A DNA stretch of 64,000 bases from Pseudomonadota bacterium (GTDB lineage Bacteria; Myxococcota_A; UBA9042; GCA-2863065): the NCBI GenBank assembly GCA_002863065.1, contig PKDL01000514.1, positions 65 through 64,064 on the forward strand, given 5' to 3'. The notes under the pieces were generated by a model that saw only the letters and a list, made by a program, of their open reading frames with translations, was not told the origin of the DNA and searched no databases. A program made the translations under genes and the position numbers. Shown here one piece after another: positions 9,368 to 55,502 of this stretch; positions within the stretch are counted from its first letter, which is position 1, and each line of letters begins with the position of its first letter.

Positions 9368-11826
9368 CTCGGACGCCCTCCCACGCATTACTAACTTTGG
9401 CGGCGCTGTTTCTGGCCCTATCTGCATGTGATAGTGGCTCATCTACTACGGACCAGACAACCGATCCTACGGACCAAACAGACGCAACGGATGCCATTGA
9501 GGGACCAGATACTGCGGATGGTACGACGACCGATGACAGCACTGACGGCACCGATAGCGGCGACCAAGTAGATGCCACGGATGGAACCGACCAGACAGAC
9601 ACGAATGATACGGGGGATGCCGCAGACAGCCGCGATGCGAGCGACGCAACGGATGATGCATCGAATACCGACGCGACGGACGGTATCGACGCGGTTGATG
9701 CCATCGATGCAGTAGACGCAACCGACAGCGCCACCGGGTCCGATGCGGCGGACGCGGCGGACTACATCGTCTGTGATGCTGGTGATGAGGCGTGGGCAAA
9801 ACGTACCATTGAAGTCCTACTCGGACGAAAGCCGCGCGGCGTGCGAGAGATTAGAGCACTGGCTGATTTGGTATCGCAATCATCTCGCACCGACGTGGCC
9901 AAGGGAATGATGACAACCCCCGAATTCCGCCGACGCTGGGCCATTTGGCTCATGGATGAGGTCCGGGTGAATCGAGTGGGAGATAAAGCGCATGATGTCT
10001 GTTACGGGAGCTTCTATCTGGGTACCCAAGAAACCGGATTTCCAAATACTGAAATCGCCAAGTACATCCGTGACAATGCGCCAGCAGAGTCTAATTTTGG
10101 ATCAACATTCTCAATGCTCGATGTGCTTTTGTCGTCTATCGAATTAGACGATTTATCCCCGTTTTACATGAGCCACCTCTTTGCGATGATGATGAAACCC
10201 ATCACAGGCGCAAATGTAGATGCTGAAGCCATGGACATCACACGCCGACAAGACTTTGGTGAAAATTTCGAGGCGATATATCTGAATCGAAATGTCGTAT
10301 GTGCCGGCTGCCACAACAGCGAGTGGGGAACTACAGATAACGAGGATCCGGAAAAAGATCGGCATCATCCGACCCCGGGCTTGGTAGAAAAGGCGGTATA
10401 TGGCTTCTCGACGGGTCGACCTGAAATGGAAGTGTACAGCGCGTTCCGCAGGCTAGGTATCGTGAGCGACAGCGGTACCCGCCCGTGGGGCATCGTTGGA
10501 GACTGTGGTCGTGTATTAGACCAGCAGAACATCAGCGAAGACTTCGCAGACTACAGCACATACTTCGGCAGCGACCTCGGAAAGACCGCAAGTATTTGGG
10601 ATGTGGAATCATTACTACACAGTGGATTTGACTCTTTACGATCCAGCGGCATGCTGGCCATTGATCCCGACACGGGTGAGGTGCCGGCGGATGAAGCGTT
10701 CGCCTACATGGTGAGTATGCGGATCACGAATCAGGTGTGGCGCGAAGTCATGGGCTTCGGGTTAACACTCGTGCATTACTTCCCACGCAACGTCGAACAG
10801 AAAGACCTGCTGCTCGAACTCACGAATCATTTCGTGATGGAGCAGTGGTCCCTACGGACCTTGCTACTCGATATCGTCACGCACCCATCATACAACGAGC
10901 CGGCACCGATGTCGGGGTGCGGAGACGCGGGCCATGCATACATACTCCCGCCGATCTTCAATCCATGGACGACCGATTACGACAATGAACTCCAAGAGAA
11001 TAACTCCGGAGATGCAATGCATCGTCATGATGCGCGCGTCATGCTGAATATGCTGACTCAGGCGTTAAGCTGGGATGCAGCGCCACTCTTTCCCAATGGC
11101 AGCGAAGAAAACTTTCAAAAAGCAATCGGCGTCTTCGTGAAGGATGCCGAGCCGGGTTTCCGTGGCGTAGATTTCCAAGGTCTGCTCACCTGGGAAGCAC
11201 GCTACGGAGCATGTACTTCTGAAAATGCTGGAGATACCGGGGGCGGATTGACGAACAGCTGCGTGGGGAAATGCGGCGGAGAAGGCGACGAATGCTACTG
11301 CGATGATGGATGCCTGCAGTTTGGTGACTGCTGTCCAGACTTCGAAGCCGTGTGCCAACAAGGTAATCTGCCCGACCTTCCAGAAGGTGCGGATTGGATA
11401 GCCCAGCTACAAGTTGTAGCAAATGCACTGAATACATCGGATGAGCCTACAACCATCCGTGATTTGGTGGTCGCCATGAAAGACCGGTTGATCAATGAAC
11501 CGGACCTGGAGCCTGGAGAAGACCTCCTTTGCGCTAGCCTCTTTGGAGTCGAGTCACTGGACGCGACGATCAGCGACGTCCCCAATTGGCAAGAGCGTAT
11601 GCGATTCTATTGCGGTGTTTTGTTATCTACACCACAGTTCATGCTGACGGGCGTGGTGGGCGACGCGCAAAACACCTCACCTAAACTCACGGTTGGACCG
11701 GCGAACTACAGTAACTACTGCGAGACATGGTCCAAAATCATCTTCGATCCGACCGTATGGACTGTGTCGTGCTATGACGACAATGTGGTGGTTACCCCGT
11801 TTGCACCGCCACTGGGCGCACTGTAA
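9364..11826 (+). CDS. PSCyt/DUF1549-DUF1553-like lipoprotein with CxxCH motif, Asp/Thr-rich linker and C-terminal somatomedin-B-like Cys knot
   Basis: Lipobox LALSAC; D/T-rich low-complexity region (aa 25-125); heme-type motif VVCAGCHNSEW; canonical partner of DUF1501; C-x3-C-x6-C-x-C-x3-C-x5-CC-x-DF-x3-C at nt 11260-11355. Confidence 0.6.
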   Translation: MTRTPSHALLTLAALFLALSACDSGSSTTDQTTDPTDQTDATDAIEGPDTADGTTTDDSTDGTDSGDQVDATDGTDQTDTNDTGDAADSRDASDATDDASNTDATDGIDAVDAIDAVDATDSATGSDAADAADYIVCDAGDEAWAKRTIEVLLGRKPRGVREIRALADLVSQSSRTDVAKGMMTTPEFRRRWAIWLMDEVRVNRVGDKAHDVCYGSFYLGTQETGFPNTEIAKYIRDNAPAESNFGSTFSMLDVLLSSIELDDLSPFYMSHLFAMMMKPITGANVDAEAMDITRRQDFGENFEAIYLNRNVVCAGCHNSEWGTTDNEDPEKDRHHPTPGLVEKAVYGFSTGRPEMEVYSAFRRLGIVSDSGTRPWGIVGDCGRVLDQQNISEDFADYSTYFGSDLGKTASIWDVESLLHSGFDSLRSSGMLAIDPDTGEVPADEAFAYMVSMRITNQVWREVMGFGLTLVHYFPRNVEQKDLLLELTNHFVMEQWSLRTLLLDIVTHPSYNEPAPMSGCGDAGHAYILPPIFNPWTTDYDNELQENNSGDAMHRHDARVMLNMLTQALSWDAAPLFPNGSEENFQKAIGVFVKDAEPGFRGVDFQGLLTWEARYGACTSENAGDTGGGLTNSCVGKCGGEGDECYCDDGCLQFGDCCPDFEAVCQQGNLPDLPEGADWIAQLQVVANALNTSDEPTTIRDLVVAMKDRLINEPDLEPGEDLLCASLFGVESLDATISDVPNWQERMRFYCGVLLSTPQFMLTGVVGDAQNTSPKLTVGPANYSNYCETWSKIIFDPTVWTVSCYDDNVVVTPFAPPLGAL
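9430..9760 (+). repeat. In-frame degenerate codon repeats encoding Asp/Thr/Ala-rich (TDxTD, DA[IV]DA) linker in PSCyt/DUF1553 gene
   Basis: Repeated GACGC/GATGC/ACGGA units visible in sequence. Confidence 0.6.
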
Positions 11827-15358: not shown

Positions 15359-18300
15359 GTGGGTAGGAAATTCAATATCTATCGGCAGCTTGGATTCATT
15401 TGGCTTGCAGTGAGCTGCATTGCCTGTGAACCCAAGAGCACAGCGTTTGTCGCGCCGGAAAGTGTCGCTAACGACGTCGTATTATCGGAGGATATCAAGG
15501 CACCCAACGTGCGCATTCTCCCTGAGCGACCCACCAGCCGCGATGCACTCACTGCTCAGTTACTCTCTCCTGAAGCGGGAGCACAATATCACTTTCGTTG
15601 GATCGTTAATGGAGAGCTACTAGACGATCAAATCGACGAGACACTGCCAGGCGGAACCGTATCGCGGGGGCAATCCGTTGTACTTGAGGTGTCCGCTTCC
15701 AGAGACGGCAGGACCTCTCCCTGGGGAGGAGCCTCAGTGGTTATTGGTAATGCTGCCCCTGTGTGTTTACGCGCGTCGATACTTCCGAATCCCCCGACCA
15801 TTTTTGATTCGATTGAATGCCGTTGCGACGACCTGGATGACCCCGATGATGACCTGGTGGATACATTATGTTTATGGAGTGACCTTGAGCCTACTTTGAA
15901 TTCATGTAGCCGTCCGGCCCCCCATAATTGGCTGACAAATACCCTCCTTACCTGCGAACTCACAGCTATCGACTCTCGGCAAGATGCCGGAACGGTGATT
16001 GCTTCCTCGATGGTAGTAAATACACCACCGACCGGAGGACAGGTGGGGCTACAGCCGGCCCAAGTATTCGAGGATTCTCAAGTCCGTTGCCTGGCGAGCG
16101 GAGCCACTGACCCTGACGGAGTATCTTGGAATTACGATATATTGGTCGACGGGCTGTTGGCCGCCACGGGTCCTGAGGCCGAAATCAACGGTAATAGCTT
16201 CGATAAAGGACAGAGCATCCAATGTATTGCCACCGCGACCGACGGAATAGCCAAAGGACAACCCATTGCATCTGAGACTGTAGTAGTCGGTGACTCGCCA
16301 GCAAGTGTTGTCGCCATACAAGCCACGCCACCCGTCGTAACTCGCCTTCAGACCCCAAGTTGCGACATCACGATGACCGATCCAGACCTGAGTGATATCC
16401 CAGAATCCGTTACGACATGGTGGCGTAATGGTGTGGTTCTCGACTGGGAGCCGGCCAGTCCACTCGGTAATACCGTAGTTCCCGGCGATACGATCTTTTG
16501 CAGTGCAACCCCACTGGACTATCCCGGTGAAAGTACGCCGAAATTATCGAATAACCTTTTAGTCAAGAATCTCGGACCTGACCTGGCCGGGGTCGATATT
16601 CTCCCTGAAGCGCCCACCATCTCAGATGTACTCACGTGTGTACCGTATGCGCACGATCCCGAAGGGGACCCCATGGTATTTAGCTATAGCTGGTCGGTTG
16701 ACGGCGCCCAAATTACGGATGCCGGCGCGACGCTCAGCGGTATCACCGCGGGGTCCTTAGTGCAATGCGAAGTGCAAGTCAGCGATGCGTATGGTGATAC
16801 CGCGTCAATGGCATCGTCCACCGTCGCCGTAGTGCACTCTCCTCCATACATCGAGGGGATTGCTATGCTGCCAACAACTCCAGGACCGTGCGACTCTGTG
16901 AGCTGCATTGTCAACGATGTCAGCGACCCCGATGGAACGAGTAATCTCACTATAGCGACCACCCTTCTTCTCAACGGCGTACCCACTTCAGAGACGACCT
17001 TTGCGGTAGGTGCAGAGCTACAATGTATTGCGACAATCACCGACGAGACGGGACTCAATGTCACGGCTTCATCCACCATCAGCCAGGTTACAAACACCCC
17101 ACCAACACTGTCGGCAGTCACGATTTCACCCGCGCAACCGACGGCAGGTGATACCCTGACTTGTGCACCGGTCGATGCAATCGATCCCGATTGCAACACT
17201 CCACCCGCAGCTATCATCGAATGGGTGAGTGAAGCAGGGGTGACTTCTGGTGGCGCATTAGAAACCACAGCCGAACAAGCAGGCCAACAAGTCACGTGTT
17301 CCTTGACGGTATCAGACGGCTACGACTCGTCGACTGCGGTGCAGTCTACGGTCACGCTGGCGCCCCCACCAAGCCTTCCCACGGTGACCATAACCACCGA
17401 TATCAACGGGTCGGTTATATGCTCGCCGGAATCACCGCTAAATTCCCCGTCGTGGTTTTGGCGCGTAGGAAACAATGACGAATTCCAAGGGCCCTGGTTT
17501 TTGCCACCATCGACGTATCAGGACTGCGATCGTGTCACTTGTCGTGCAGAAAGTAATGGCCTGGCGACCAATATCGCTGAAGCCCTAATACCACTGGGGC
17601 CTGACTGCGATGACGGCTCACTCTGTACCCTAGATACCTGCTCACCTGCGGGCGGCTGTAGCCATACGGCATTGTCCGGCGCCTGTGATGATGGCGATAA
17701 CTGTACCGAGAATGATGCATGCCAGGACGCGATATGCAGCGGGTCCCCAACCGACTGTGATGATGACAACCCGTGCACCACGGAGCTTTGCGTGTCTGGC
17801 TTCGGATGCAATTACGGATATGCCAATGGGCCTTGTGATGATGGCGATGCCTGCACTCTCGATGATTATTGCATCGAGGGCAGCTGCGGCTTCGCCTCAA
17901 CCGCCATATGCGATGATGGAGATGTATGTACTGATGACGCCTGCGACTCCGAATTAGGCTGCATCGGTTGGCCCAATGTGTCTGTGTGCGATGATGGGAA
18001 TTCCTGCACACATATGGACGTATGTGCTGATGGTGACTGTCAAGGTAAACCGCTCACCGAATCAATCACTTGCCCCGATCCCGCGAGTCCCCTCGGGTAC
18101 TGCAGCAATGGGGTGTGCGTGAGCAATATCCCCCCACAGATCCCAATCCTCACGATATCACCCAGCATAGCGCAGGCAGGCAGCCCATTGATCTGCTCCG
18201 CAGTCGCTACTGATCCGGACAGCTGGCCAGCGCCAATGCAGTACACATTCCGTTGGACGCGAGAGCCAGCGGGGATTCAAATTGCTGATGGTCCAGAACT

Positions 18301-19489
18301 GCCAGGCGATCTACTGTCGAAAGGTGATGTGCTTGCGTGCCGAGCCACGGCATCAGACGGATTATTATCGTCGTTAGAAGCAATTATATTGGCCAAGGTC
18401 GTCAATGCCCCACCAGTTGTCGAATCGGTGTCCTTGACGGCAAATGATACGACGGTCACGTGCAATAGTGAGACCTATGATCCTGATACCGAAGACAGCC
18501 TAAATCTTAGTTATGCATGGTTTGCCGATGGGCTTTCTCTACCGCTGGATAGCCACACGGTCTCATCACATTCATTACCTGCCTGTAGCAATGTTACCTG
18601 CGAAGTTACCGTCGATGATGGACATGCGAGCAATGTGAAAACGGCATCACCTCTTGACGTCGATAACCCGAAAGCCTGTGGTCCAGAACCATGCTTAGTG
18701 TGGTCGTGCTCTGCCAACGGATGTACTTCCGTGCCTGGCGTCGGACCGTGCGATGACGGTAACCCATGCACTGGTTCGGGTATCTGCATCAATTCTGTCT
18801 GCGTTGCTGAGCCACTACCCGACGACGCGTGCAATGACAGCAATGTATGCACAACAGACAGTTGTAATGCAGACGTCGGCTGCGTTCATACCCCCGTATC
18901 GTTCGGAGTCGACTGCAATGCAGATGATTCCGTTTGTACAGAGGCGGACTTCTGCAATGCGATGGGCACATGCATTCCAGGCCCCCCGATCAGCTGTGAT
19001 GATGGCATCGCGTGCACATCCGACGCATGTGACCCCAACGATGGGTGCATCGCTACTTTGCCGGGGGAGTCTATCGGCTTCGCCATCGATTTTGGAATGA
19101 CCGAAGAATTTCTTCCATTCGCAGATGAGGCCACCACCGAGCTGGTTCAAGGTCCCCAGGGTGGAGAACACATCGAGTTTTCTTTGCAATACCTCTTGCC
19201 ATCGTCCTTCAATTGGCAGCCGCTGCGATCTAGAGTCATTGTCACCCTGGAGGGACCATGTTGCGGCGGTCTTCCTATCGGGGGGATGTACTTACCAAAC
19301 GTCCTGAGCGACTTAGAAGGCCCCAATGTATACGTGAGTGGCATGGTGATAGGTATCTTTGATCAGGAAATAACGACGGGCTCGACCGTATGCGCAACGG
19401 TCGAAGTGACAGTTTATGACGAACCAGGAACCACCGCAGTCAACACCAGCACTGCGAGGCATATGTTTACTATTATCGACACCGAGTAA
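15359..19489 (+). CDS. Giant secreted lipoprotein/adhesin-like protein: multiple Ig/cadherin-like beta domains plus two blocks of slime-mold-type (Dicty_CTDC-like) Cys repeats
   Basis: Lipobox WLAVSCIAC; repeated ~90-aa beta-rich units (ATxPxxxT..CxxxxDPD); CDDGNxCTxDxCxxxxGC repeated >12 times at nt ~17600-18120 and ~18670-19060. Confidence 0.7.
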   Translation: MGRKFNIYRQLGFIWLAVSCIACEPKSTAFVAPESVANDVVLSEDIKAPNVRILPERPTSRDALTAQLLSPEAGAQYHFRWIVNGELLDDQIDETLPGGTVSRGQSVVLEVSASRDGRTSPWGGASVVIGNAAPVCLRASILPNPPTIFDSIECRCDDLDDPDDDLVDTLCLWSDLEPTLNSCSRPAPHNWLTNTLLTCELTAIDSRQDAGTVIASSMVVNTPPTGGQVGLQPAQVFEDSQVRCLASGATDPDGVSWNYDILVDGLLAATGPEAEINGNSFDKGQSIQCIATATDGIAKGQPIASETVVVGDSPASVVAIQATPPVVTRLQTPSCDITMTDPDLSDIPESVTTWWRNGVVLDWEPASPLGNTVVPGDTIFCSATPLDYPGESTPKLSNNLLVKNLGPDLAGVDILPEAPTISDVLTCVPYAHDPEGDPMVFSYSWSVDGAQITDAGATLSGITAGSLVQCEVQVSDAYGDTASMASSTVAVVHSPPYIEGIAMLPTTPGPCDSVSCIVNDVSDPDGTSNLTIATTLLLNGVPTSETTFAVGAELQCIATITDETGLNVTASSTISQVTNTPPTLSAVTISPAQPTAGDTLTCAPVDAIDPDCNTPPAAIIEWVSEAGVTSGGALETTAEQAGQQVTCSLTVSDGYDSSTAVQSTVTLAPPPSLPTVTITTDINGSVICSPESPLNSPSWFWRVGNNDEFQGPWFLPPSTYQDCDRVTCRAESNGLATNIAEALIPLGPDCDDGSLCTLDTCSPAGGCSHTALSGACDDGDNCTENDACQDAICSGSPTDCDDDNPCTTELCVSGFGCNYGYANGPCDDGDACTLDDYCIEGSCGFASTAICDDGDVCTDDACDSELGCIGWPNVSVCDDGNSCTHMDVCADGDCQGKPLTESITCPDPASPLGYCSNGVCVSNIPPQIPILTISPSIAQAGSPLICSAVATDPDSWPAPMQYTFRWTREPAGIQIADGPELPGDLLSKGDVLACRATASDGLLSSLEAIILAKVVNAPPVVESVSLTANDTTVTCNSETYDPDTEDSLNLSYAWFADGLSLPLDSHTVSSHSLPACSNVTCEVTVDDGHASNVKTASPLDVDNPKACGPEPCLVWSCSANGCTSVPGVGPCDDGNPCTGSGICINSVCVAEPLPDDACNDSNVCTTDSCNADVGCVHTPVSFGVDCNADDSVCTEADFCNAMGTCIPGPPISCDDGIACTSDACDPNDGCIATLPGESIGFAIDFGMTEEFLPFADEATTELVQGPQGGEHIEFSLQYLLPSSFNWQPLRSRVIVTLEGPCCGGLPIGGMYLPNVLSDLEGPNVYVSGMVIGIFDQEITTGSTVCATVEVTVYDEPGTTAVNTSTARHMFTIIDTE

Positions 19490-35340: not shown

Positions 35341-36732
35341 CTATCCTGGCGGTAGGCTCTCCTCATCACACCACCTCACCAAATCGGCGAGACAAAGTCG
35401 GCCATCATGCGCCCAAACCATAGACGGCGTACCCATCGCTCCTGGAGGGCAAATCCTAGTCACACCCAAGCGTGCTAATTGAAGTCGGTCCTCCTCAGAT
35501 ATTCCCGCAACAGCCGCACATTGGAGGTACTGGCGCACCGGATTGATCTGCGCAAATACATCCTCGGCTTTATCTACGGGTACCACTGTCACAAAGCGGT
35601 CTAACGGACCTGGCTTTAGGGTATCGAGCTGCCGAATAACGACAGACGACTGCAAGGTATCGCTCACGAGTCGAGCATCTCCCATGGCGGCCTCTACTCG
35701 GCTAAGTTCGAGCGCACTTCGGAGGGCTGGAGCCTCTTCAGGCAACAAGGCGCGAGCAGGTAGCCTTTTCCGCACCTTGGTCATGGCATTGGATAGCTGC
35801 TCCGCAAACGTTTCCGGCGAGACCTCACCACCGGATTCGACATACACAGCTTGCGGCGCAAGACATGCGTGCTGGTCGAACACGCTAAAATCATATGCCA
35901 ATTTTTCGGCCAGTCCGAGGCTGTCTGACGTGGTCATCACCGATGAGGTAAGCCATGCAAAGCCCATACGATGTCCATGCCAAGTAGCACGAGATCCGTG
36001 CGGAAGCCGTTTTTCGATCTCAGCGAGTGCTGCGTCTCCTCCATACGCAATGAGGTGATCGCTACACTCGAGAAATGCATCACTAAGCTCATGCTTATCC
36101 CGGTCGTAATACACTACTGCCAAGCACTCGCTCAGCTCTGGGTCGATGGCTGCGAGCGATTGTGCGTATAAAGGTAAATATAATGGTTCGCCACGACTCA
36201 CACGCCCCATACAGGCTGCTTTCACAAGAAAGGAGCGCATAACGGTCAGATGTGGCAAGGCGGGAATATTCGCGCTAAAAATGCCGCCGATCAGCTCTGG
36301 ACCGACCGCCGTTGAGCGGCCCTTTGGAGTCTTAATAAAACCATCAAGAGCGAGTCGATTACCCAGTTCCCGGTCAAGTGCTCTACGCATATCTGGACCG
36401 CGAGAACTAATCTGCTCGAGATGAATCGCATGCGACACCATCTCCTCAGAAAATCCCGATAAGACCGAAATCGCCGTCACTGCGTGACTGCGGAGTGGCG
36501 TATCTTCCAACCAGAACCGCGCTACTGAGTCGAGAGCCTCAATAATCTCGTCGATAGACCGACGCGCAAGCACTTCACGACGGCGTGCTTTCAATCGAGC
36601 AGCACATTGCCGTATTTGGGAGACTGTCAGGACGGGAAACCGTACCTCAATCGACCGTCCATCACGTACCGCGGTCATTGCCGTAGTCTCAACCTGAATA
36701 CCTGGTAGCCAAAACGCATCGTAACTAGCCAC
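35341..36732 (-). CDS. LuxC-family acyl-CoA (acyl-protein) reductase
   Basis: ~460 aa; catalytic-Cys block VFDQHACLAPQAVYV as in LuxC; follows LuxE-like gene with overlap. Confidence 0.7.
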   Translation of the reverse strand: MASYDAFWLPGIQVETTAMTAVRDGRSIEVRFPVLTVSQIRQCAARLKARRREVLARRSIDEIIEALDSVARFWLEDTPLRSHAVTAISVLSGFSEEMVSHAIHLEQISSRGPDMRRALDRELGNRLALDGFIKTPKGRSTAVGPELIGGIFSANIPALPHLTVMRSFLVKAACMGRVSRGEPLYLPLYAQSLAAIDPELSECLAVVYYDRDKHELSDAFLECSDHLIAYGGDAALAEIEKRLPHGSRATWHGHRMGFAWLTSSVMTTSDSLGLAEKLAYDFSVFDQHACLAPQAVYVESGGEVSPETFAEQLSNAMTKVRKRLPARALLPEEAPALRSALELSRVEAAMGDARLVSDTLQSSVVIRQLDTLKPGPLDRFVTVVPVDKAEDVFAQINPVRQYLQCAAVAGISEEDRLQLARLGVTRICPPGAMGTPSMVWAHDGRLCLADLVRWCDEESLPPG

Positions 36733-37819
36733 CGGTTTGTCCTCCCAGCATGGCGTCTATCGTGAGCGAACAACCCTTCGACTCAACTCCCTTCGCCCGC
36801 CCCAATACCGTCCAGCCTAGCGCATCTCGTACCCCCAAATCGTCGGTAAGTACCGCACATGGCCGTTCTAAGTTGGCCAGGTCCCAATGACAGAGCAGAC
36901 CCGGAGTACCATGGGCAGCAAACTGCATCGAACGTGGGTCCAGCACCACAGTTCGAGTCCAGGGCGCATTAGACTTGCGGCGCCGCTGAGGATCGCGGTG
37001 TATCAATACATCATCGTAGAATTGACTAGCGAGCTCCGTCATTCCAAGTAAATTGACGCTGAGATGGGCAGGAATTGCCAGTGTCTCGGTAATCGCCCGA
37101 TCCATGTCATTTCGCCGCACCACACGGGACCTTCCCTTGAATCCACCGGCATCCATTAGTCGGCTGCCCTCCGGCAGCTGCAACGTCAGGGATTTAGCGG
37201 CAAGACCATCCAGAAGGTGAACGAACCCGAAGCTAGCACCGATCAATGTGACCGGGATGTTGGCACGGATGCAGTCCGTGAAAGTCTGCATCAAACCATT
37301 TTGGTCCAAACCCTCTGGACCGACGAGAAATCGAGAACCTGGTAAACCGAAATGTTGGATGAGCTGCTCCATTCCCCACGCCATAATCATATGCGGAGCT
37401 AAAGAAGGCGAAGGGGCAAGTACCAGAATGACCGTATTGCGCCCTTCGGGTAAAAAATATTTGCGTGCATTCTGCAGAATACTTTCCGCCATCAGAGTGA
37501 GGCCGGCTTCAGAAAAGTGGGCTTTTGACTTCGGTGCGCCGCTCGTACCGCTCGAAAAAAACGTATGCGCAAGCGCACCGTCATCGAACATGGAATATGA
37601 CTTAAAAGCACGAGCGGGTATCGCGGGGATATCATTCCAGCGCTGAACCCTATCAGGCGTGTTTCCAGTGTAGTCCGCTACCCGACGGACAACCTCAATG
37701 TGCTTATACTGGTACTCGAATACCGCAAGGGCAAGCGCATTGAAGTCTCCAACTTCGGGTGTCCGGATAAATGACACCAGGCGATCGTGCAGGGCATCGT
37801 GTGCGAGTTCCCGAGTCAC
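36725..37819 (-). CDS. LuxE-family acyl-protein synthetase (adenylate-forming)
   Basis: N-terminal FEYQYKHIEVVRRVADYTG...WNDIPAIPARAFK...FSSGTSG typical of LuxE/acyl-protein synthetase. Confidence 0.7.
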   Translation of the reverse strand: MTRELAHDALHDRLVSFIRTPEVGDFNALALAVFEYQYKHIEVVRRVADYTGNTPDRVQRWNDIPAIPARAFKSYSMFDDGALAHTFFSSGTSGAPKSKAHFSEAGLTLMAESILQNARKYFLPEGRNTVILVLAPSPSLAPHMIMAWGMEQLIQHFGLPGSRFLVGPEGLDQNGLMQTFTDCIRANIPVTLIGASFGFVHLLDGLAAKSLTLQLPEGSRLMDAGGFKGRSRVVRRNDMDRAITETLAIPAHLSVNLLGMTELASQFYDDVLIHRDPQRRRKSNAPWTRTVVLDPRSMQFAAHGTPGLLCHWDLANLERPCAVLTDDLGVRDALGWTVLGRAKGVESKGCSLTIDAMLGGQTGG

Positions 37820-38973
37820 TCTAACGGTCTCCTGTGCACCGTGATGGCCTTTGATGTGATGAAGGGCATGAGTTCTCCACGAATATCATCCAGGCTCCGC
37901 CCCGTATCCAATGCATGCGCTTCAAGCGTTGTGCATCCGTCGACCCACGATGGACCTTTGGTGAGTATCAGGGGGACGCAATCCGATGGAAGCACAGGCA
38001 AGTCAATCGGCTTGACCGGTAACACCTCATCGTCTGCCGCGTAGGCAAATAATCTTGGAGCATGGTTGAATTTTCGTTCAAAAGCATAAGCGTAGGCAGA
38101 CAGCCCTGCTGCCACTCCATCACCGAGAGCTACCAATGTCGATGCATAACGCCCAGTCACATCTCCTGCGGCAAACACTCCTGGCTCGCTTGTTCGCATT
38201 AGTCCGTCTGTCGTAAGGAACCCTCTCAAATCGCGGGCCGGCTCCACACCGGTGACGTGCAAGGCTGGTGTTAGTTCGAAGGCATTGTAATCCATCAGAA
38301 TGGCACCACAGTCTATTATTCGCTCACCATGCGCATCACGTACCTTAGCCGCTACCACATGCGTTTCGCCCATAACTTCGAGTAGCTCACCTCCATCCAG
38401 CACCGTGACTGGACCTGCTCCACTGGTATGCGCACGGAGCATAGCCTTCAGATGCGACGTTTTTTCATTACCGACGACGAGAAGACCACGACCAGAAGCG
38501 TCTTTCGCACAGGCCCGGAGTAAGCGTGGAAAATGCTCATATCCTTTGTACGTAATGCGCACCCCTCGCAGATAGTACTCCGACTCATTTGCCAGAGGCC
38601 GGAACCCCGTTGCCAGAATTACAGCCAAGCTCCGCAATGCAGCGCCCGATGCCAGACCTACCTCCAAAAGCGCACCTTTTCGGTGTATCGAAACCACTTG
38701 GTCATGCTGAATTGGTATGCGTAATCTCTCAATATCGGCCATCAATCGATCGGTAAGCTCTTGTCCTTTGTAGGCCCAACCGGGCCCAGAAAGCACACAG
38801 CTCCCCCAACGCAATAAACCGCCGACTGTACCCGATTCGATGATCCGTACTGAGCAAGCCATGGCATGGTAACCCTTCACCCAGCGTACCCGCGTCGCCG
38901 CTGCCAAGCCTGCCGGTCCGGCTCCAACAACGATCACATCGGCATCATAACCGCCTGGCGAGACATCAGCCAT
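37816..38973 (-). CDS. FAD-dependent pyridine-nucleotide oxidoreductase (thioredoxin-reductase-like fold, no CxxC) with C-terminal extension; start likely Met at 38973
   Basis: DADVIVVGAGPAGLAAA FAD-binding GxGxxG; FAAGDVTGR C-terminal FAD motif; second NAD(P) Rossmann LLVVGNEKTS. Confidence 0.7.
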   Translation of the reverse strand: MADVSPGGYDADVIVVGAGPAGLAAATRVRWVKGYHAMACSVRIIESGTVGGLLRWGSCVLSGPGWAYKGQELTDRLMADIERLRIPIQHDQVVSIHRKGALLEVGLASGAALRSLAVILATGFRPLANESEYYLRGVRITYKGYEHFPRLLRACAKDASGRGLLVVGNEKTSHLKAMLRAHTSGAGPVTVLDGGELLEVMGETHVVAAKVRDAHGERIIDCGAILMDYNAFELTPALHVTGVEPARDLRGFLTTDGLMRTSEPGVFAAGDVTGRYASTLVALGDGVAAGLSAYAYAFERKFNHAPRLFAYAADDEVLPVKPIDLPVLPSDCVPLILTKGPSWVDGCTTLEAHALDTGRSLDDIRGELMPFITSKAITVHRRPLE

Positions 38974-39487
38974 CCTGTGAAGCCTTATGCGTCGAAGTCG
39001 AAAGTCCCAACCACTGGGCGAGTCCACCTGCATCACACACACGCTGCCAATGCGGATCCCATGGTTCGATAGGAAATTGCCGACCGCTTACTGTCAATAG
39101 GCGCGATATCAGGTCGAGTCGTACCGCAACATCATCGGAAGGCCGATAACCAGCAAGTGCCGGACAAACCACTGCAGGTAAGCCCAAGTTCATCACGTTC
39201 CGATAGAAAATACGGGCGAAAGATGCGGCTACAATCGCCTGGACCCCGGCCAGTACGAACACGCGCGCCCCCGTTTCACGCGATGAGCCAATCCCGAAGT
39301 TCTCTCCCGCCAATACAATGGCACCGGTAAGGTCGCGCTGCCCATCTGACTCCCTGCCATCAACGGCGCCTAGAAACCCCGACCGAACCTTTTTATCGTC
39401 CAGGCTATAAAAGCGGCTGGGATGTAAAATGTCGGTATTGACGTTATCACCCAGCACGAGTGCTCGCCCCTCGACCAGCGGCTTCAT
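38966..39487 (-). CDS. leuD: 3-isopropylmalate/(homo)aconitate dehydratase small subunit, archaeal type
   Basis: LGDNVNTDILHPSRF swivel-domain motif; 173 aa; ATGA overlap with large subunit. Confidence 0.8.
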   Translation of the reverse strand: MKPLVEGRALVLGDNVNTDILHPSRFYSLDDKKVRSGFLGAVDGRESDGQRDLTGAIVLAGENFGIGSSRETGARVFVLAGVQAIVAASFARIFYRNVMNLGLPAVVCPALAGYRPSDDVAVRLDLISRLLTVSGRQFPIEPWDPHWQRVCDAGGLAQWLGLSTSTHKASQDG

Positions 39488-44518: not shown

Positions 44519-44876
44519 CAGTCGTGCTCTCAACACCAACGAAAGCCGTGCCCATGGTCCATTCTCCTGCGAAAAAACAAGTGCCAAGTCATATCGGACT
44601 GAGAACCAAGCGGGAAGCCAGATTAACGGGGGCACTTTCCCGAATGCCACCTTCCGCGACTGCATAATTGGACAAGGGTTGAACTACCGTCAGCGTCGGG
44701 AAAAACTGGGGTCTTCCTAAACCACCTCCGTAAGAAACCCAGGCACGAATGCTCGATAAAAACAGGTGTGTGTACGATAACTGCATCGGCGCTTCACGTT
44801 GGTGAATACAAGATGCATCGTCTGCGATACGCAGTGCTGCTCGCATGACTTGGAGATAAAAAAGAGGAGTTCTCTA

Positions 44877-46163
44877 ATGTTTCTTGCAGACTTGACCGAA
44901 GACCTCTTTGGTATGGAACAGTCTCATATAACAAACATTGTCGTCGCCCTCTTCCTTGCGTCCTGTACGACGCCGCCTCCGGTCGATGTACAAGATGAGT
45001 CGCTCAATGATTCGTACACTGCGTATGCTACGCCTCCGAGCCCGCTGGTCCCGAGTACTCCGCTGCAGATTGGGAGTGTGCCGCATGATGCGACGAAGGT
45101 GCAGCGGACGGCACTGCATTGGTTAAATACGTTCCGTATCCGAGCCGGCGTTGCTCCAATCCACCAACTAAACACCTTAAACACTGCTGCCTCATCGCAT
45201 GCGGCCTACGTACTCGCCAATGCAGACCTCTATGCAACTGGCTTGTCTGTACACGAGCAAGACCCAGAGCAGCCGGGCTTCCTTGGAGAACGTTTCTGGG
45301 AGCGGCTCGCAGCCGTAGGTTATAATGGGACCGCATTCCGTGAGGTGGTCGCCTACCATGCTCAACCTGCGACCGCCATCGCACATTGGATGGAAACCAT
45401 CTACCACCGACTGCCTCTGATACATCCCAATGCCCAGCATGTCGGCTATGGTGAAGCACATCTGGTGAATGACCGGGTCAATGTAATGGACGTAGGCGCC
45501 GGCGATGGTTGGTCGCCCCGGATTCCCGGAGGTGTCGCCTGGCCACCGGATGGTGCGACCCAGGTGGCCTTGGCATGGGATGGATTAGAAAGTCCGCAGC
45601 CCTTGTCTCCGCCAAATGGGTTTCCATCTGGACCAGTCATCACGCTTACGTTTCCAAACGGTACGGACTTTGCGATTGCTGAACATCGACTCACAAATAT
45701 GAGTACGGGCGAGATCATCGCGCACGTCTTTGCGGATCAAAACAATGATCCAAACCTCGCAAAAGAAAGCTCAGTTGCCATGTATGCAAATGAACCACTG
45801 CAACCAGCCGCGACGTACTCAGTACAGATGAAGGGCGTAGTCGATGGCGCCGTTTTCGAACGTCAGTGGTCATTTAGTACACGAGCAGTCGCACAGTGCA
45901 GCGTCCAATGGCAGGATTGCGGGGTCGGAAAGGGCTGTTATGCCACTACCGACAATGGAGCCACATGCGCTTGGGCCGGTGCGAGGCGTATGGGGGAGCC
46001 CTGCGAATTCCAGAATGATTGTGCCGGGGGACTGACGTGTGTGTCGTCGGTCTGTCGTGTGTACTGCTTGGTCGATGGCGGAGATGGGGGCTGCGATACC
46101 AAATGTGATGCCGGGTGGTCAGCTCTGAATGTTCCGGGAGGCCATGGCGTCTGTAAGCTTTGA
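44877..46163 (+). CDS. Secreted lipoprotein with CAP/SCP (PR-1-like) domain and C-terminal Cys-rich module
   Basis: RBS AAGAGGAG 7 nt upstream; lipobox LFLASC; CAP motifs HTQVVW-like (HAAYVL...GENL..., HYTQ-like HWMETIYHRLPLIHPNAQHVGYG); C-terminal CxxC-rich. Confidence 0.6.
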   Translation: MFLADLTEDLFGMEQSHITNIVVALFLASCTTPPPVDVQDESLNDSYTAYATPPSPLVPSTPLQIGSVPHDATKVQRTALHWLNTFRIRAGVAPIHQLNTLNTAASSHAAYVLANADLYATGLSVHEQDPEQPGFLGERFWERLAAVGYNGTAFREVVAYHAQPATAIAHWMETIYHRLPLIHPNAQHVGYGEAHLVNDRVNVMDVGAGDGWSPRIPGGVAWPPDGATQVALAWDGLESPQPLSPPNGFPSGPVITLTFPNGTDFAIAEHRLTNMSTGEIIAHVFADQNNDPNLAKESSVAMYANEPLQPAATYSVQMKGVVDGAVFERQWSFSTRAVAQCSVQWQDCGVGKGCYATTDNGATCAWAGARRMGEPCEFQNDCAGGLTCVSSVCRVYCLVDGGDGGCDTKCDAGWSALNVPGGHGVCKL

Positions 46164-50635: not shown

Positions 50636-51484
50636 GTGTCTAAAGGTGATTCCTTCGACATGCGGCTCACAGAGCTTGTGGAGCGATTGTCCTCTGAGGA
50701 CTTGCCAGCATTACGCGACAGAAGACTCAGATCGTTAGGAGATGAGCAACGGGCACGCCTCGACGAGACCATGCTCGCCCTCGACGGGCTGCTCGATTTG
50801 CTGGACCAACGCGAGGCGGCAATTGCGTCCGGTTCCGTACATCCTGTGATTACGCCCGCAGCCGATACGACCGAAAGCCCAAAGACATTCCAAATGAGTG
50901 GTAGCGAGGAGGACGCGGATACTGAGGGACCCGACACAGTCGTACTCGAAGCGGTGTCTGATAGTGATATGGACACGCCGCACATCGAACCCGATGCACT
51001 GCCTCAGGTACAGACAAATGAAGAGCCCATTGAGGATTACGTCATCCCTCAGGTGGACGAGGAGGAGCCTCCCTCACCGGGATGGACTCGGCGCTCTGAA
51101 CTTCTATACGACGACATGCTTCGCCTGTTCCGGCTCGCGGACAGCGATGGAGCGCTCGTTTCACTCGAAAGGCTACTGACCTCGACTCCTCTGAATGCCG
51201 ACCTGACAGAGTTCATCCACGTGAACGAAGAGCGACTTTTGGAACTCTACCAATCGGTCATTGGACCATTGGATTCGGTGCCCACGACGCTAGATACCAC
51301 CGAAGGTCCTATTCCGACCGCCTTTCTCAAATTTTCCAAGATTAGTTCCATTCTGCCACTGATCGATGGGGTCAATTGCATACAAGACATTATGGAGGCG
51401 GCACCCCTGTCGCGATTGGAAACTATTACAGTGATCAACCAATTGCTACGTTCAGGGGTTATCACGGTGGAGGGCACGACATGA
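50636..51484 (+). CDS. Acidic hypothetical protein with DUF4388-like C-terminal segment
   Basis: C-terminal FSKISSILPLIDGVNCIQDIMEAAP...TITVINQLLRSGVI resembles DUF4388 (PatA-like) motif; weak. Confidence 0.3.
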   Translation: MSKGDSFDMRLTELVERLSSEDLPALRDRRLRSLGDEQRARLDETMLALDGLLDLLDQREAAIASGSVHPVITPAADTTESPKTFQMSGSEEDADTEGPDTVVLEAVSDSDMDTPHIEPDALPQVQTNEEPIEDYVIPQVDEEEPPSPGWTRRSELLYDDMLRLFRLADSDGALVSLERLLTSTPLNADLTEFIHVNEERLLELYQSVIGPLDSVPTTLDTTEGPIPTAFLKFSKISSILPLIDGVNCIQDIMEAAPLSRLETITVINQLLRSGVITVEGTT

Positions 51485-51942
51485 CGGCAATGACAGTGCG
51501 TTGGGAAGACTTCGAATCCGCCTTCATTATCGGCAGTCCAGATGCCCGGTATTTCCTGAACCTAGATACAGGAGAAACGGAATATACCAGTCATATGGAC
51601 GGTGACACGGTCAAAGCGCGCGTGCTCCAAAAGGTAGAGTCCGGTCATTTTTTGGAGATACCACGCCCGAGCTTTGACGATGCCATGGCGGAGGTTAACG
51701 CGTTCATTAGCTCGGAAAATGCGGAGACTCAGACTCGCCTTAAAGAGGGAATGATGGAGCATCGAAGCCCTTTTTTAGGCTTTAATCGGGCTATTGGATC
51801 AGATCGAGAGTTACGCGCACGCTGGAGCGCGCATCGTCAGGCAGGCATCGAGAGACGGCTGATATCTTTCTGCCGAGACCACGAACTTGCCATCGAAAAT
51901 GAGGTCTATAAACAGCTTCTCAAAAAGCACCTGACAAATTAG
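51481..51942 (+). CDS. UPF0158-like hypothetical protein
   Basis: ATGA overlap with upstream gene; sequence reminiscent of UPF0158 family (WEDFESAF...YFLNLDTGE); weak. Confidence 0.3.
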   Translation: MTAMTVRWEDFESAFIIGSPDARYFLNLDTGETEYTSHMDGDTVKARVLQKVESGHFLEIPRPSFDDAMAEVNAFISSENAETQTRLKEGMMEHRSPFLGFNRAIGSDRELRARWSAHRQAGIERRLISFCRDHELAIENEVYKQLLKKHLTN

Positions 51943-51969: not shown

Positions 51970-53577
51970 TTAGACACCGCAAGAAGAGCGAATCTCACTC
52001 ACAGTCGTCTTACCCATGGCGGCCGCCAGCACTGCAAGCTCAAACAAAGTGTGGAATCCGTCTTCACGCGCTAATTCCATCAGCTCTTCTTCATCAGCAC
52101 CGTTGCGAATCGCATCTCGCATCGCAGTTGGCGCATATGCTATCTCCGACACGAGTACTCGGCCCGCATAGCCGGTGCCCCAACAATGTGTGCATCCTTT
52201 GCCTTGCCGAAAGTTTTCATTTGGCGACGGGATTTCGGGTAGGCCCAGTTCGGTTCGTACCGAGGCTTCCACATCCACACCCACGCCACACTCGGGACAA
52301 ACCCGCCTTAGTAATCGCACTGCAACTACTGCCTGCAATGTCGCCGCCAAAGACCATGAAGAAGAGAGAGATGAAAGTGTCTTTAGTGTCGTCATCGCTC
52401 GACTGCCCGCAACCGTCACCACCACAAGTCGCCCTTCGAGAGCGGCGTGCGTCATTCTGGAAATATCCTCCAGCGGTACATCGTCAAACAGCAAAACATC
52501 GGGGTCCTGACTCAGGGCCTCATCAAGCTGATGTGGCTGGAAACCCAGAGCCCCCGATACGCCCATCGAACCATGGCGAGACAACGTGACTATTTGGCGT
52601 TCACTTCGAGAGACCATCTCGACGAGTGCAGACGCGAGCGTAGTTCGACCTGAATCCTTCGGCCCGGCGATAACCACCAACCCATGTGGGCGGCCCAGTA
52701 TTTGCTCGAGCCGAGAACGCTGGTCATGTGTGAAGTCCAGATCGTCCAAAGTGTGGATGTCAACATCCAACGACAGCAGCGTGACTGCTTGTCCAAATAC
52801 GGTGTTGGCTATCTTGAGTCGAAACCGACCGCGCCCCTCTGACGTACTCGCCGTTAGAATGCCTCCATGGGCAAGTGAACTTAGTCGCGCGACGATAGCC
52901 CGATGCAATCTCCGCGGGACCGTAAGTAGTGTCTGCAACCCCCCATCGACTCGCATCCGAATGCGGGCGGTAGTTTCGAATGGTTCAATATGTAAACCAC
53001 TCGCCTTCCTGCGTACAGCCTCAGTCAGAAGGTGATCCACGACAGTCACAACTGGCCGAGCATCAATCGGCGGCTCATCTTCCTCAGCCGGCGGACTAGA
53101 TACGGCTACATGCGCTGGAGGCGTGTCTAATAAGGCAGAAAGCTCTGGCTTACCTGACAGTTGAGATAGCGACCATTCAGCAAACTCAGATGCCGCGATG
53201 ACACGAATAGATATGTTGCGAAAACCGGTAGCATTTCGCACCGCATCGAGAGCGACTGTATTCTGTGGATCCACCATACCCACGACTAAAGTATTACCCT
53301 CAACTTCCAGTGGGACGACTTCAAAGCGTCGCATAGAAGGTGATGGCATCATTGCTAAAACCTCTGACTTCGGCGTGACATCCCCCAGAGAAACAGCTGT
53401 CGTACCACTCTGCTGGGCCAGGGCCTCTCGAAGAGAATCCGCTTCCAACAACCCCTCAGAAACAAGGATTTCCCCCAGCCGTCGATGCTCAGCACGCTGC
53501 CGTTGGAGCATTTCATCCAGCTTCTCCTGCGATAATGCACCTTGCTGCACTAGCAGCTCTCCCAACCTAAGCGCCAT
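51970..53577 (-). CDS. GspE/PilB-like type II/IV secretion ATPase homologue with N-terminal MshEN (T2SSE_N) c-di-GMP-binding domain but degenerate ATPase motifs
   Basis: Tandem 24-aa MshEN motifs RLGELLVQQGALSQEKLDEMLQRQ / RLGEILVSEGLLEADSLREALAQQ; Walker A GPKDSGRTT (Lys->Arg); Asp/His boxes lost; C-terminal tetra-Cys CPEC...CTHC retained. Confidence 0.7.
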   Translation of the reverse strand: MALRLGELLVQQGALSQEKLDEMLQRQRAEHRRLGEILVSEGLLEADSLREALAQQSGTTAVSLGDVTPKSEVLAMMPSPSMRRFEVVPLEVEGNTLVVGMVDPQNTVALDAVRNATGFRNISIRVIAASEFAEWSLSQLSGKPELSALLDTPPAHVAVSSPPAEEDEPPIDARPVVTVVDHLLTEAVRRKASGLHIEPFETTARIRMRVDGGLQTLLTVPRRLHRAIVARLSSLAHGGILTASTSEGRGRFRLKIANTVFGQAVTLLSLDVDIHTLDDLDFTHDQRSRLEQILGRPHGLVVIAGPKDSGRTTLASALVEMVSRSERQIVTLSRHGSMGVSGALGFQPHQLDEALSQDPDVLLFDDVPLEDISRMTHAALEGRLVVVTVAGSRAMTTLKTLSSLSSSWSLAATLQAVVAVRLLRRVCPECGVGVDVEASVRTELGLPEIPSPNENFRQGKGCTHCWGTGYAGRVLVSEIAYAPTAMRDAIRNGADEEELMELAREDGFHTLFELAVLAAAMGKTTVSEIRSSCGV

Positions 53578-54634
53578 AAGGCTCTCCTCCCGTATCGAAC
53601 GTGACGCGCTGTAAGTGCGTCACGAGTTTTCCCACGTACGTGTGGAACGCCGGACAGCGAATATTCGTGCCGCTCAGCAGCTCGAACGTATTGATTGTGT
53701 TGTAGATGACCAATTGGTTGAAGTAGTCGACGATACTTTCAGGCGGACTAAATCGTTTCGCAATCGGTAGCCGAAACAGCCGACGCGCGACAGGCGCTGG
53801 AATATGGCCTCTAGGACGCTTTCTTTGCGCATGGTCGGCAAACAACTCCAGAACCCGACGCGCAGGTAGTGGATTGGGGTCAGTCACATGAAACGTTAGA
53901 CCGATGCCACGTGGGTCCCGAGCAATGTGTGAAATCACGTTCACTACATAATCCGCGGGAACTAAATTCAGCGGATGGTCGCCGCGCCCTGGAAGGAATC
54001 CGAAGCTGAATGGGGACGACAAGAATGCCATCATCATTCGATAGGGCTCATCTCGATGTTCGATCTCGCCTGTTTCACTATCACCAACGACAAGGCTCGG
54101 ACGATATATCGATATCGGAAGGTCCCGCGATGCACGACGAACTAGCCGCTCTGCTTCCAACTTCGTCCGCTCATACTCATTTCGTGGTTTTTGCCCTCGG
54201 TCGAGTTCTTCCTCCATCACAACGCCTTGTCTGCTTCCTGAAACGAATGCGGTGGACAGAAAATTGAATCGCTGCAGATGGTCTGCTCCCAGCGCAAGTT
54301 CAAGTATCGTGCGCGTCCCCTTTATGTTGATAGCGCGCACCGTCTCTGGCCGTGATCGAGCGCTGGAGGATGCCAGGTGATATATCACATCGACCTCGCG
54401 CAACAGACGGCGCACCTCTGGCCCACTTAGTCCGAGGTCCATCATAGTCACATCACCCACCAGGATCTCACCGGAACCGGTGTCCGTTCTTCGAAGAAAC
54501 TGCTCAGCTTCTTGTTGATAACGGTACGGAGTTAGCAAACGAACATGTTCGCCCTGTGACAAAAGGCGACTTGCAAGCTTCCGAGTCAATAGGCTCGGGT
54601 ATCCGGTCAATAGAACATCAGCCATGAGATGCAC
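53567..54634 (-). CDS. NAD-dependent epimerase/dehydratase (extended SDR, thioester-reductase-like)
   Basis: N-terminal VLLTGYPSLLTRKLASRLL NAD-binding; ~355 aa. Confidence 0.6.
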   Translation of the reverse strand: MHLMADVLLTGYPSLLTRKLASRLLSQGEHVRLLTPYRYQQEAEQFLRRTDTGSGEILVGDVTMMDLGLSGPEVRRLLREVDVIYHLASSSARSRPETVRAINIKGTRTILELALGADHLQRFNFLSTAFVSGSRQGVVMEEELDRGQKPRNEYERTKLEAERLVRRASRDLPISIYRPSLVVGDSETGEIEHRDEPYRMMMAFLSSPFSFGFLPGRGDHPLNLVPADYVVNVISHIARDPRGIGLTFHVTDPNPLPARRVLELFADHAQRKRPRGHIPAPVARRLFRLPIAKRFSPPESIVDYFNQLVIYNTINTFELLSGTNIRCPAFHTYVGKLVTHLQRVTFDTGGEPYGA

Positions 54635-55250
54635 CAGTATAGTTGAGACCGAGCAACTCGTGTATTCGAGCCAAGGCTTGGTCTACACGGCGCTCCAGGG
54701 TTGGAAGGTCGGCATCGTTATAAATCACAACATCGGCACGTTGGACTTTATCCTCCAGGGGCATTTGAGCAGCAATTCGAGCCCGGGCGTCTTCCTCAGA
54801 TAAATCGAGGTCACGAGAGGCAATTCGCATCATTTGGAGGTCCACTGGTGCAGCGACTACAAGAACCATAGGGAATTGGCGATAACTCCCCGTTTCGAAC
54901 AACAAGGCTGCGTCATAGAACCCAAGGGTTTCGCCGCTACTAATCCATGAAGCAAATACCTCTGCTGAACGTCGTGCAACGGCTGGATGAACTATCCCAT
55001 TGAGATCACGCCTAGCCCCGTCATCGCCGAACACTGTTTTTCCAAGCTCACGACGCCTTAACCGACCATGCTCATCCACAATAGCGTGACCAAATCTTTC
55101 GATAAGCGCAGCCAGTGCCGGTTCGCCAGGCATCAAGACATCCCGAGAGATTTGGTCCGCGTCGACGACAGGATATCCGCGTCGCTTCAACATCGCACTG
55201 ACGGTAGACTTACCGCTAGCGATTCCCCCTGTTAGACCTACGATTCGAAT
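54618..55250 (-). CDS. coaE: Dephospho-CoA kinase (start uncertain; ORF open to 55388)
   Basis: IVGLTGGIASGKSTVSAML...VVDADQISRDV P-loop and DxD. Confidence 0.8.
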   Translation of the reverse strand: MRIVGLTGGIASGKSTVSAMLKRRGYPVVDADQISRDVLMPGEPALAALIERFGHAIVDEHGRLRRRELGKTVFGDDGARRDLNGIVHPAVARRSAEVFASWISSGETLGFYDAALLFETGSYRQFPMVLVVAAPVDLQMMRIASRDLDLSEEDARARIAAQMPLEDKVQRADVVIYNDADLPTLERRVDQALARIHELLGLNYTGASHG

Positions 55251-55502
55251 GCTGCTACTCCGAAATCCGCTGATACAAACCGGCGCCTGCGCGCGAGTAC
55301 CTTGACACCCCGTGTGCTCACTGCTAACCCAAACGTCTCGCAGAGGCAACCGGTGGTACGGTCGCCAGCATAACCCCAATGAGCACACTGTGCTGCCATT
55401 GTATTACTATTTGCCGTGGCTGACACCACAGTGCGATGTGTCTTGCTCCTCTTACGATTCCAAATGCGACAGAACGCAACAAGATAGCGGCGAGGTAAGT
55501 GC

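Follow-up and report, generated by a model that had tools for sequence, protein, structure and literature searches.

The ATPases of the PilB/GspE family, which serve secretion systems and pili, are regarded as obligate motors. The described proteins closest to the one reported here are the type IV pilus extension ATPases MshE of Vibrio cholerae, PilB of Geobacter, Myxococcus and Chloracidobacterium, and PilF of Thermus, which have in common an order of domains (MshEN or N-terminal domain 1, N1D; then N2D; then a C-terminal domain, CTD), a Zn tetracysteine and two 24-residue motifs for cyclic di-GMP (c-di-GMP) set apart by a 5-residue spacer. MshEN modules occur in diverse architectures, and Myxococcus xanthus encodes 22 MshEN proteins (PMC5013675). 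In the same organism, an ATPase-dead Walker A variant of PilB signals exopolysaccharide (EPS) production without pilus assembly and is the strongest signaller (Black et al. 2017, PMC5544727). Here we describe a gene on contig PKDL01000514.1 (assembly GCA_002863065.1, Pseudomonadota bacterium; Myxococcota_A in the GTDB lineage), within a 64,000-nucleotide stretch that we call the window. Judging from its predicted model, its product has kept the three-domain fold of these ATPases; judging from its sequence, it has lost their catalytic residues. The family of this putative pseudo-ATPase is conserved among uncultured Myxococcota and had not been described.

Fold and domains of the probable pseudo-ATPase

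The gene is an open reading frame (ORF) of 535 amino acids with an ATG start. Its overall extent and its larger domains are as follows.

51970..53577, minus strand: whole gene of the PilB/MshE/GspE-derived pseudo-ATPase, predicted to hold N1D/MshEN, a linker, N2D and a CTD with a Zn site (Pfam T2SSE and MshEN).
53158..53409, minus strand: MshEN_C subdomain, residues 57-140 (Pfam MshEN at 59-134; aligned to MshE 5htl and to the PilF GSPII domains; predicted model).
53062..53157, minus strand: predicted disordered linker, residues 141-172 (model confidence below 50 at 142-172; the least conserved part of the protein).
52753..53061, minus strand: N2D domain, residues 173-275 (arginines of RIRMRVDG kept, loop 'DIAEKRxPQDGR' deleted, from alignments).
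52183..52299, minus strand: Zn tetracysteine region, C427/C430/C462/C465 (both C-x2-C pairs kept in the window protein).

Pfam places T2SSE (PF00437) on residues 172-529 (3.3e-43, 148 bits against a cutoff of 24.9) and MshEN (PF05157) on residues 59-134 (8.6e-15, 54.9 bits against a cutoff of 23.1), and the NCBIfam model NF053729 ('cyclic di-GMP-binding domain, MshE-related') covers residues 4-56 at 55.2 bits, with a cutoff of 38. Neither of the equivalog models for the motors is reached: PilB TIGR02538 scores 242.9 against a cutoff of 675.65, and GspE TIGR02533 scores 195.3 against 630.25. By sequence (HMMER), the closest solved structures are PilF (6f8l, 4.5e-82) and PilB (2.6e-60; Geobacter PilB 6olj and 5tsg), both aligned end to end, and MshE 5htl matches the N-terminal region at 2.3e-12. 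An AlphaFold2 (AF2) model has a mean predicted local distance difference test score (pLDDT) of 82, with disorder restricted to linker residues 142-172. Its N-terminus is a four-helix bundle followed by a sheet-plus-helix subdomain, and Foldseek superposes its core on the PilF and PilB crystal structures with a target-normalised template-modelling (TM) score of 0.86 and a root-mean-square deviation of 2.4 A.

An earlier note on this DNA, made from the sequence alone, had described the C-terminal Zn tetracysteine as kept, and C427, C430, C462 and C465 are indeed all present; in the window protein they form a predicted metal site. In a subclade of relatives (P0082, P0083, P0086 and P0089), all four Zn cysteines have been lost, with the MshEN motifs and the operon described below retained.

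Loss of the catalytic motifs

The register of the ATPase core was set by HMMER alignments to solved PilF and PilB structures and by MAFFT alignments with canonical homologues, and the two agree. They place the former catalytic motifs as follows.

52639..52668, minus strand: Walker A equivalent, AGPKDSGRTT, with Arg311 for the invariant Lys and Lys307 for Thr.
52561..52602, minus strand: Asp-box equivalent, ERQIVTLSRHGSMG, with the EDPxE acids lost and a family-specific R-Q pair.
52474..52509, minus strand: Walker B equivalent, QDPDVLLFDDVP, with hhhhD in place of hhhhGE and Asp365 near-invariant in the family.
52396..52437, minus strand: His-box equivalent, EGRLVVVTVAGSRA, with both His lost and Arg393 invariant in the family.

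In these alignments, GPKDSGRTT lies in register with the canonical GPTGSGKTT, which bears out the Lys-to-Arg change that the earlier note had read in Walker A. Its further claims that the acidic residues of the Asp box and Walker B and the histidines of the His box are gone stand as well. TLSRHGS aligns to the Asp box T(V/I)EDPVE and contains no acidic residue; DPDVLLFDDVP aligns to DPDIIMVGEIR, and the catalytic Glu of hhhhGE(I/M)RD is missing. At the His box, EGRLVVVTVAGSRA aligns to the canonical TGHLVLSTLHTNDA, and the consensus TGHLVxSTLHTN goes unmatched, with the window reading EGRLVVVTVAGS and both His replaced. Two deletions come on top of the losses noted earlier: one removes the N2D loop 'DIAEKRxPQDGR', the other about 10 residues that would follow the Asp box.

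Alignments to PilF, PilB and canonical homologues revealed no canonical motifs offset elsewhere in the protein, an alternative that the earlier note had raised and that we reject because the alignments put the lost motifs in register with PilF and PilB. The set of substitutions suggests that the pseudo-ATPase does not turn over ATP.

The predicted c-di-GMP receptor module

We tested the N-terminus by regular-expression match for two copies of the MshEN motif RLGxxhhxxGhhxxxxhxxxLxxQ, 5 residues apart, and found the following elements.

53497..53568, minus strand: MshEN motif 1, residues 4-27, RLGELLVQQGALSQEKLDEMLQRQ, a relaxed motif fit with 11/11 key positions.
53482..53496, minus strand: 5-residue spacer RAEHR between the MshEN motifs, the same spacing as in V. 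cholerae MshE (VcMshE; PMC11731258).
53410..53481, minus strand: MshEN motif 2, residues 33-56, RLGEILVSEGLLEADSLREALAQQ, a strict consensus fit with 11/11 key positions.

Both motifs fit the relaxed 24-residue form of Wang et al. 2016, and the tandem arrangement that had been read from the sequence thus holds, with NF053729 above its cutoff over the same residues. The sole deviation of motif 1 from the strict consensus is at position 11, where Ala stands for L, V or I. Ten VcMshE residues are named as critical for c-di-GMP binding: R9, G11, I19, L29, Q32, R38, G40, L54, L58 and Q61 (PMC5013675; PMC12943098). Their equivalents in the window protein are R4, G6, A14, L24, Q27, R33, G35, L49, L53 and Q56, so that in the alignment nine of the ten are identical and the tenth (I19 to Ala) is a conservative change. 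Most family members score 9-11 of 11 on the MshEN motifs, as high as canonical MshE and PilB or higher. The pseudo-ATPase is therefore predicted, on the strength of these residues, to bind c-di-GMP at its N-terminal bundle.

Another candidate c-di-GMP receptor in the window is a stand-alone PilZ-domain protein of 100 amino acids (4928-5230, plus strand; E = 1.6e-10), whose gene directly follows that for RNase G on its downstream side. Its presence indicates that the organism uses c-di-GMP.

A conserved family with the same losses

A word-indexed search returned three close relatives, P0002 (66% identity), P0003 (58%) and P0004 (37%), all with the same substitutions. Membership of the family rests on a profile search that went exhaustively through 1.84 billion representative proteins. 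Its matches formed a gradient rising above the roughly 290 bits of a generic PilB, and it brought in about 14 more clusters, defined at 50% identity, that show the same losses (P0081-P0084, P0086-P0089, P0091, P0092, P0096, P0097, P0119 and P0126). Altogether, the same changes are shared by about 16 divergent clusters, with identities down to 30%. A second word-indexed search, with a 17-member profile, recovered nearly the same candidates and no added named members. A contig scan of a species-representative set, using a four-sequence alignment and two peptide patterns, returned just one distant Lentisphaeria locus at 29% identity, which suggests either that this set does not contain the lineage or that the two peptide patterns do not match it.

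None of the 16 other family sequences has the Asp box, the Glu of Walker B or the second His of the His box. The earlier note had looked to orthologues as a check on its reading, and those found share the losses, none having intact motifs. At the Walker A Lys position, 13 of the 17 members have Arg, and single members have Cys, Leu or Ala; a basic residue occupies position 307 in 15/17. The family pattern for Walker A is GP(R/K)xSGR(S/T)T, and the N2D loop deletion is common to the family. In a small neighbour-joining (NJ) tree of the ATPase core, the 16 full-length members are monophyletic, their nearest neighbour is the partly degenerate P0111, and the closest fully catalytically intact relatives are P0093 and P0101. 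Of the two named members, both from Myxococcota metagenome-assembled genomes, one is labelled 'type IV pilus assembly protein PilB' by automatic annotation (MFT5430819.1, for example) and the other 'hypothetical protein'. In the literature that we searched, neither a PilB/MshE-like pseudo-ATPase nor an MshEN-T2SSE protein that is degenerate by nature is described, a result that is not proof of novelty.

Two neighbours of the family in the tree, both from outside the window, have features of their own. P0111 keeps the Walker A Lys (GPMESGKTT), yet reads VEETIEY, HILMVDPIS and STINAND at the other motifs; since it is differently degenerate, catalysis may have been lost more than once hereabouts. 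The gene for the intact relative P0093 (L015, 9001-10863) likewise stands apart from pilus and secretion genes: the nearest 9 kb hold no pil or gsp gene, and GAF-GGDEF and GGDEF-EAL genes are close by.

Selection and the apparently remodelled site

Purifying selection acts on the pseudo-ATPase gene. In a comparison with the orthologue of 66% identity, the proportion of synonymous differences (pS) is 0.77, which is saturated, the proportion of nonsynonymous differences (pN) is 0.23, and no stops occur over 535 codons. A dN/dS ratio is not computable because synonymous sites are saturated (pS 0.76-0.83), and the contrast with pN was used instead. Mean pairwise identities by region are given below.

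MshEN four-helix bundle: 0.44 in the family, 0.41 in the canonical sample.
N2D: 0.34 in the family, 0.43 in the canonical sample.
Catalytic core: 0.39 in the family, 0.56 in the canonical sample.
C-terminal region: 0.44 in the family, 0.36 in the canonical sample.

The MshEN module is as conserved in the family as in real motors, and the catalytic core is relaxed. The former active site nevertheless has conserved residues of its own: R/K307 after the GP of Walker A, R311, the pair R327-Q328, Asp365 and Arg393. The R-Q pair takes the place of the (K/x)N that precedes the Asp box; Asp365 is near-invariant (at least 90% of the family), giving hhhhD rather than hhhhGE; and Arg393 is invariant, in a GSRA that stands for HTNDA. 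By homology to PilB, R/K307, R311, R327, D365 and R393 would cluster at the nucleotide pocket. From these residues, the former ATP site looks remodelled rather than merely decayed, arginine-rich and acid-poor, and it may still bind a phosphate-bearing ligand. The word 'degenerate' in the earlier note is right about the hydrolytic residues and undersells a site with conserved residues of its own.

The operon and its short-chain dehydrogenase/reductase partner

The pseudo-ATPase is the third and last cistron of an operon that begins with coaE and continues with a gene for a short-chain dehydrogenase/reductase (SDR).

54618..55388, minus strand: CoaE, dephospho-CoA kinase, first cistron (Pfam CoaE, 3.1e-54).
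53567..54625, minus strand: SDR, thioester-reductase-like (NAD_binding_4), the cistron upstream of the pseudo-ATPase (Pfam, NCBIfam).

The coaE stop overlaps the SDR start by 8 nucleotides (nt), and the same order and overlap are found in L008, L009, L012, L013 and L014; comparison with orthologues makes the ATG at 54625 the likely true start of the SDR. The SDR stop in turn overlaps the ATPase start by 11 nt, with a ribosome-binding site, GGAGGAGAG, within the SDR 3' end. An SDR-pseudo-ATPase pair with a stop/start overlap of 1-23 nt is found in 10 of 11 distinct loci (the window, L001, L002, L003, L008, L009/L010, L011, L012, L013 and L014). These loci reach down to ATPase identities of about 35-40%, and coaE is upstream wherever the contig is long enough. 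Scans for promoters and terminators found sites no more numerous than in shuffled sequence, and we place no weight on them.

The earlier note had called the gene solitary. That is correct as regards secretion and pilus genes: when 52 ORFs of the 64 kb were scanned with Pfam (45 taken as the largest that do not overlap and have 90 amino acids or more, plus seven others), no type II secretion system (T2SS), type IV pilus (T4P) or pilin family was found, and in 10 related loci the surrounding 10 kb or so are likewise free of pilus and secretion genes. It is not correct as regards the gene's immediate surroundings, where it is the third cistron of a conserved, coupled coaE-SDR-pseudo-ATPase operon.

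The SDR is itself atypical. Its nearest solved relatives are the MxaA reductase domain (4u7w, 2.4e-22) and terminal reductase domains of polyketide synthases (PKSs); its PRK07201 score of 168 bits does not reach the cutoff of that model, and no equivalog cutoff is reached either. Its dinucleotide loop, TG(F/Y)P(S/A)F at every locus and written TGYPSLLT in the window, lacks two of the three glycines of TGxxGxxG, the second and the third. The catalytic Tyr is replaced by Phe in 6/8 loci and is present only in the window (Tyr153, with Lys157) and its closest relative. The most conserved part of the protein is its C-terminal 70 residues. Although the window copy keeps Tyr153, the SDR partner looks non-catalytic in most lineages, to judge by the partners in L008, L009, L012, L013, L014 and L002. 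Because the SDR is atypical in this way, the operon may encode two pseudoenzymes.

Other genes in the window

The window is a housekeeping region with RNase G, ffh, gpsA, xerC, hslVU, an aminotransferase, ResB/CcsA-like cytochrome c assembly genes and coaE. Two conserved proteins without a Pfam family (about 150 and about 280-410 amino acids; 50636-51942, plus strand) converge on the 3' end of the pseudo-ATPase gene. The 188-residue ORF of this pair probably starts at an internal Met, which gives about 150 amino acids. Orthologues of the pair are found in L001, L009, L012, L013 and L014, and it is present in nearly every related locus.

Farther away (35341-39042, minus strand), a pyridine nucleotide-disulphide oxidoreductase gene stands in a row with those for a LuxC-type acyl-CoA reductase and a LuxE-type acyl-protein synthetase, an arrangement that resembles a module for making fatty aldehydes, here in a lineage that is not luminous. 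The plus strand at 9364-11826, 15359-19489 and 44799-46163 encodes large proteins whose modules are of eukaryotic appearance (a Somatomedin B domain, Dictyostelium CTDC repeats and a CAP domain), and proteins with CTDC repeats and CAP domains recur in related loci.

Proposed function and alternatives

We consider it probable that this protein is a PilB/MshE/GspE-derived pseudo-ATPase that serves as a non-hydrolysing c-di-GMP receptor or scaffold and works with the atypical SDR. In such a mechanism, c-di-GMP would be bound at the four-helix bundle and ATP would not be turned over. The signal would be passed on by a conformational or oligomeric change instead of mechanical work on a pilus platform, and the most likely direct partner would be the co-translated SDR. 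The arginine-rich former ATP site (R/K307, R311, R327, R393 and D365) would probably hold a phosphate-bearing ligand without hydrolysing it. The earlier note had suggested a dead paralogue kept as a c-di-GMP receptor or scaffold, a view that gains support from the purifying selection, the predicted fold and the MshEN motifs, which are the best-kept part of the protein.

Several points weigh against this account. Binding of c-di-GMP, ATPase inactivity and interaction with the SDR are all deduced from sequence. The link to the SDR has an exception, as the P0081 locus is without the SDR and has a FemAB-like gene downstream. The whole neighbourhood, with its cytochrome c assembly genes, hslUV, xerC and aminotransferase, is syntenic in the lineage, so the operon link may partly reflect shared descent and not function. 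The conserved Walker A Arg, the Asp of hhhhD and the invariant Arg393 could mean a non-canonical active site. Finally, the gene scan covered the 64 kb window, and a canonical T4P or T2SS elsewhere in the genome may be modulated by this protein.

The last two of these points correspond to fuller alternatives. In one of them, the protein would be a regulatory paralogue and, in response to c-di-GMP, would poison or tune a canonical PilB or GspE encoded elsewhere, by entering mixed hexamers or by competing for the PilC/PilM platform. This role would suit an intact MshEN module and a fold that is kept in the predicted model, probably together with its oligomerisation surfaces; it would also have a precedent in the separable signalling role of M. 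xanthus PilB (PMC5544727). We nonetheless hold it to be quite unlikely, since neither the window nor the roughly 10 kb around 10 related loci contains a pilus or secretion gene, the conserved and translationally coupled neighbour is an SDR and not a pilus component, and one subclade has lost the Zn site. Just as improbable, or slightly more so, is a working nucleoside triphosphatase (NTPase) that powers some process with a non-canonical set of residues, in which Arg311 would sit in the P-loop, Asp365 would serve as Walker B and Arg393 as a sensor or finger. The conservation of these residues (13/17 for Arg311, at least 90% for D365, all members for R393) is what such an enzyme would call for, as are the retained N2D arginines (RxRxR), P-loop glycines and Ser/Thr. 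Yet no candidate for a water-activating Glu is present, the Asp box and Walker B Glu are gone in every member, and the N2D loop 'EKRxPQDGR' is deleted. Moreover, Cys, Leu or Ala at position 311 in some members is unexpected for a catalytically essential residue, and the catalytic core is under weaker constraint than that of real motors (0.39 vs 0.56). In P-loop NTPases, a Lys-to-Arg change in Walker A usually abolishes hydrolysis, which also counts against an active enzyme.

That several motifs are lost at once, and that the orthologous locus L001 is split by frameshifts, might also suggest a decaying pseudogene or an assembly artefact of this genome. The L001 frameshifts are sequencing errors, however, because they lie on a long-read contig on which the adjacent SDR, CoaE and aminotransferase genes are fragmented too. 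With intact full-length ORFs bearing the same substitutions in at least 10 independent assemblies, and with saturated pS against a pN of 0.23, we regard this explanation as refuted and give it practically no credence.

A bolder form of the receptor hypothesis is a module of two pseudoenzymes, in which a PilB-derived protein, its old ATP site rebuilt as a Mg-independent, arginine-rich pocket for another phosphorylated ligand, would be coupled stoichiometrically to a non-catalytic SDR and would integrate c-di-GMP with a metabolic cofactor signal in this lineage of uncultured Myxococcota. We think this unlikely, if worth stating. The neighbouring coaE and thioester-reductase-like genes make CoA or acyl-CoA species, NADP(H) and an alarmone the candidate ligands, and such a module, if real, would use the secretion-ATPase fold without a link to any pilus or secretion machine.

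The non-hydrolysing c-di-GMP receptor that we favor would have consequences of its own. A conserved, natural, ATPase-dead branch with its high-affinity c-di-GMP sensor retained would mean that evolution has turned the fold to signalling alone. In practice, when metagenome-assembled genomes of Myxococcota are examined for pili or type II secretion, these genes should not count as evidence. For specialists in pili and c-di-GMP the finding is mildly surprising, and so far it is limited to uncultured Myxococcota.

Comparison with known systems

With MshE, PilB and PilF, the window protein shares the domain order, the Zn tetracysteine and the paired 24-residue motifs with their 5-residue spacer. 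Unlike them, it has lost the invariant Lys of Walker A, the acids of the Asp box, the Glu of Walker B, both His of the His box and the arginine loop of N2D, and it sits in a coaE-SDR operon rather than with pilC, pilM or gsp genes. A functional parallel is M. xanthus PilB, likewise a PilB-type protein of the Myxococcota with MshEN motifs, whose signalling is independent of ATP hydrolysis. M. xanthus PilB is, however, a genuine motor that signals as well, and its dead form is a laboratory mutant, whereas the predicted loss of catalysis in the window family is natural, ancient, family-wide and separate from pil genes. If our reading is right, the family would be a natural counterpart to signalling by ATPase-dead PilB and would add a class of output to the MshEN receptors.

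The SDR partner has the same NAD_binding_4 fold as the MxaA R domain and PRK07201, with the Gly-rich loop altered and, in 6/8 loci, the Tyr as well. Among c-di-GMP receptors, FimX (PMC11656802) and other degenerate GGDEF/EAL proteins similarly retain an enzyme fold without catalysis for signalling. In the FimX type, it is the degenerate catalytic domain itself that binds c-di-GMP, whereas the window protein has an intact receptor module, MshEN, and a motor domain that appears non-catalytic. NfrB, a c-di-GMP-activated glycosyltransferase, illustrates MshEN as a portable input domain on non-motor outputs, and NfrB models match residues 5-125 of the window protein. Unlike NfrB-type fusions, the window protein has an output that is still a T2SSE fold, though apparently inactive, and we found no such case in the literature searched. 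A pseudoenzyme in c-di-GMP signalling is thus a familiar concept; what differs here is the combination of an intact receptor and an apparently dead motor, found across a whole family and tied to an atypical SDR.

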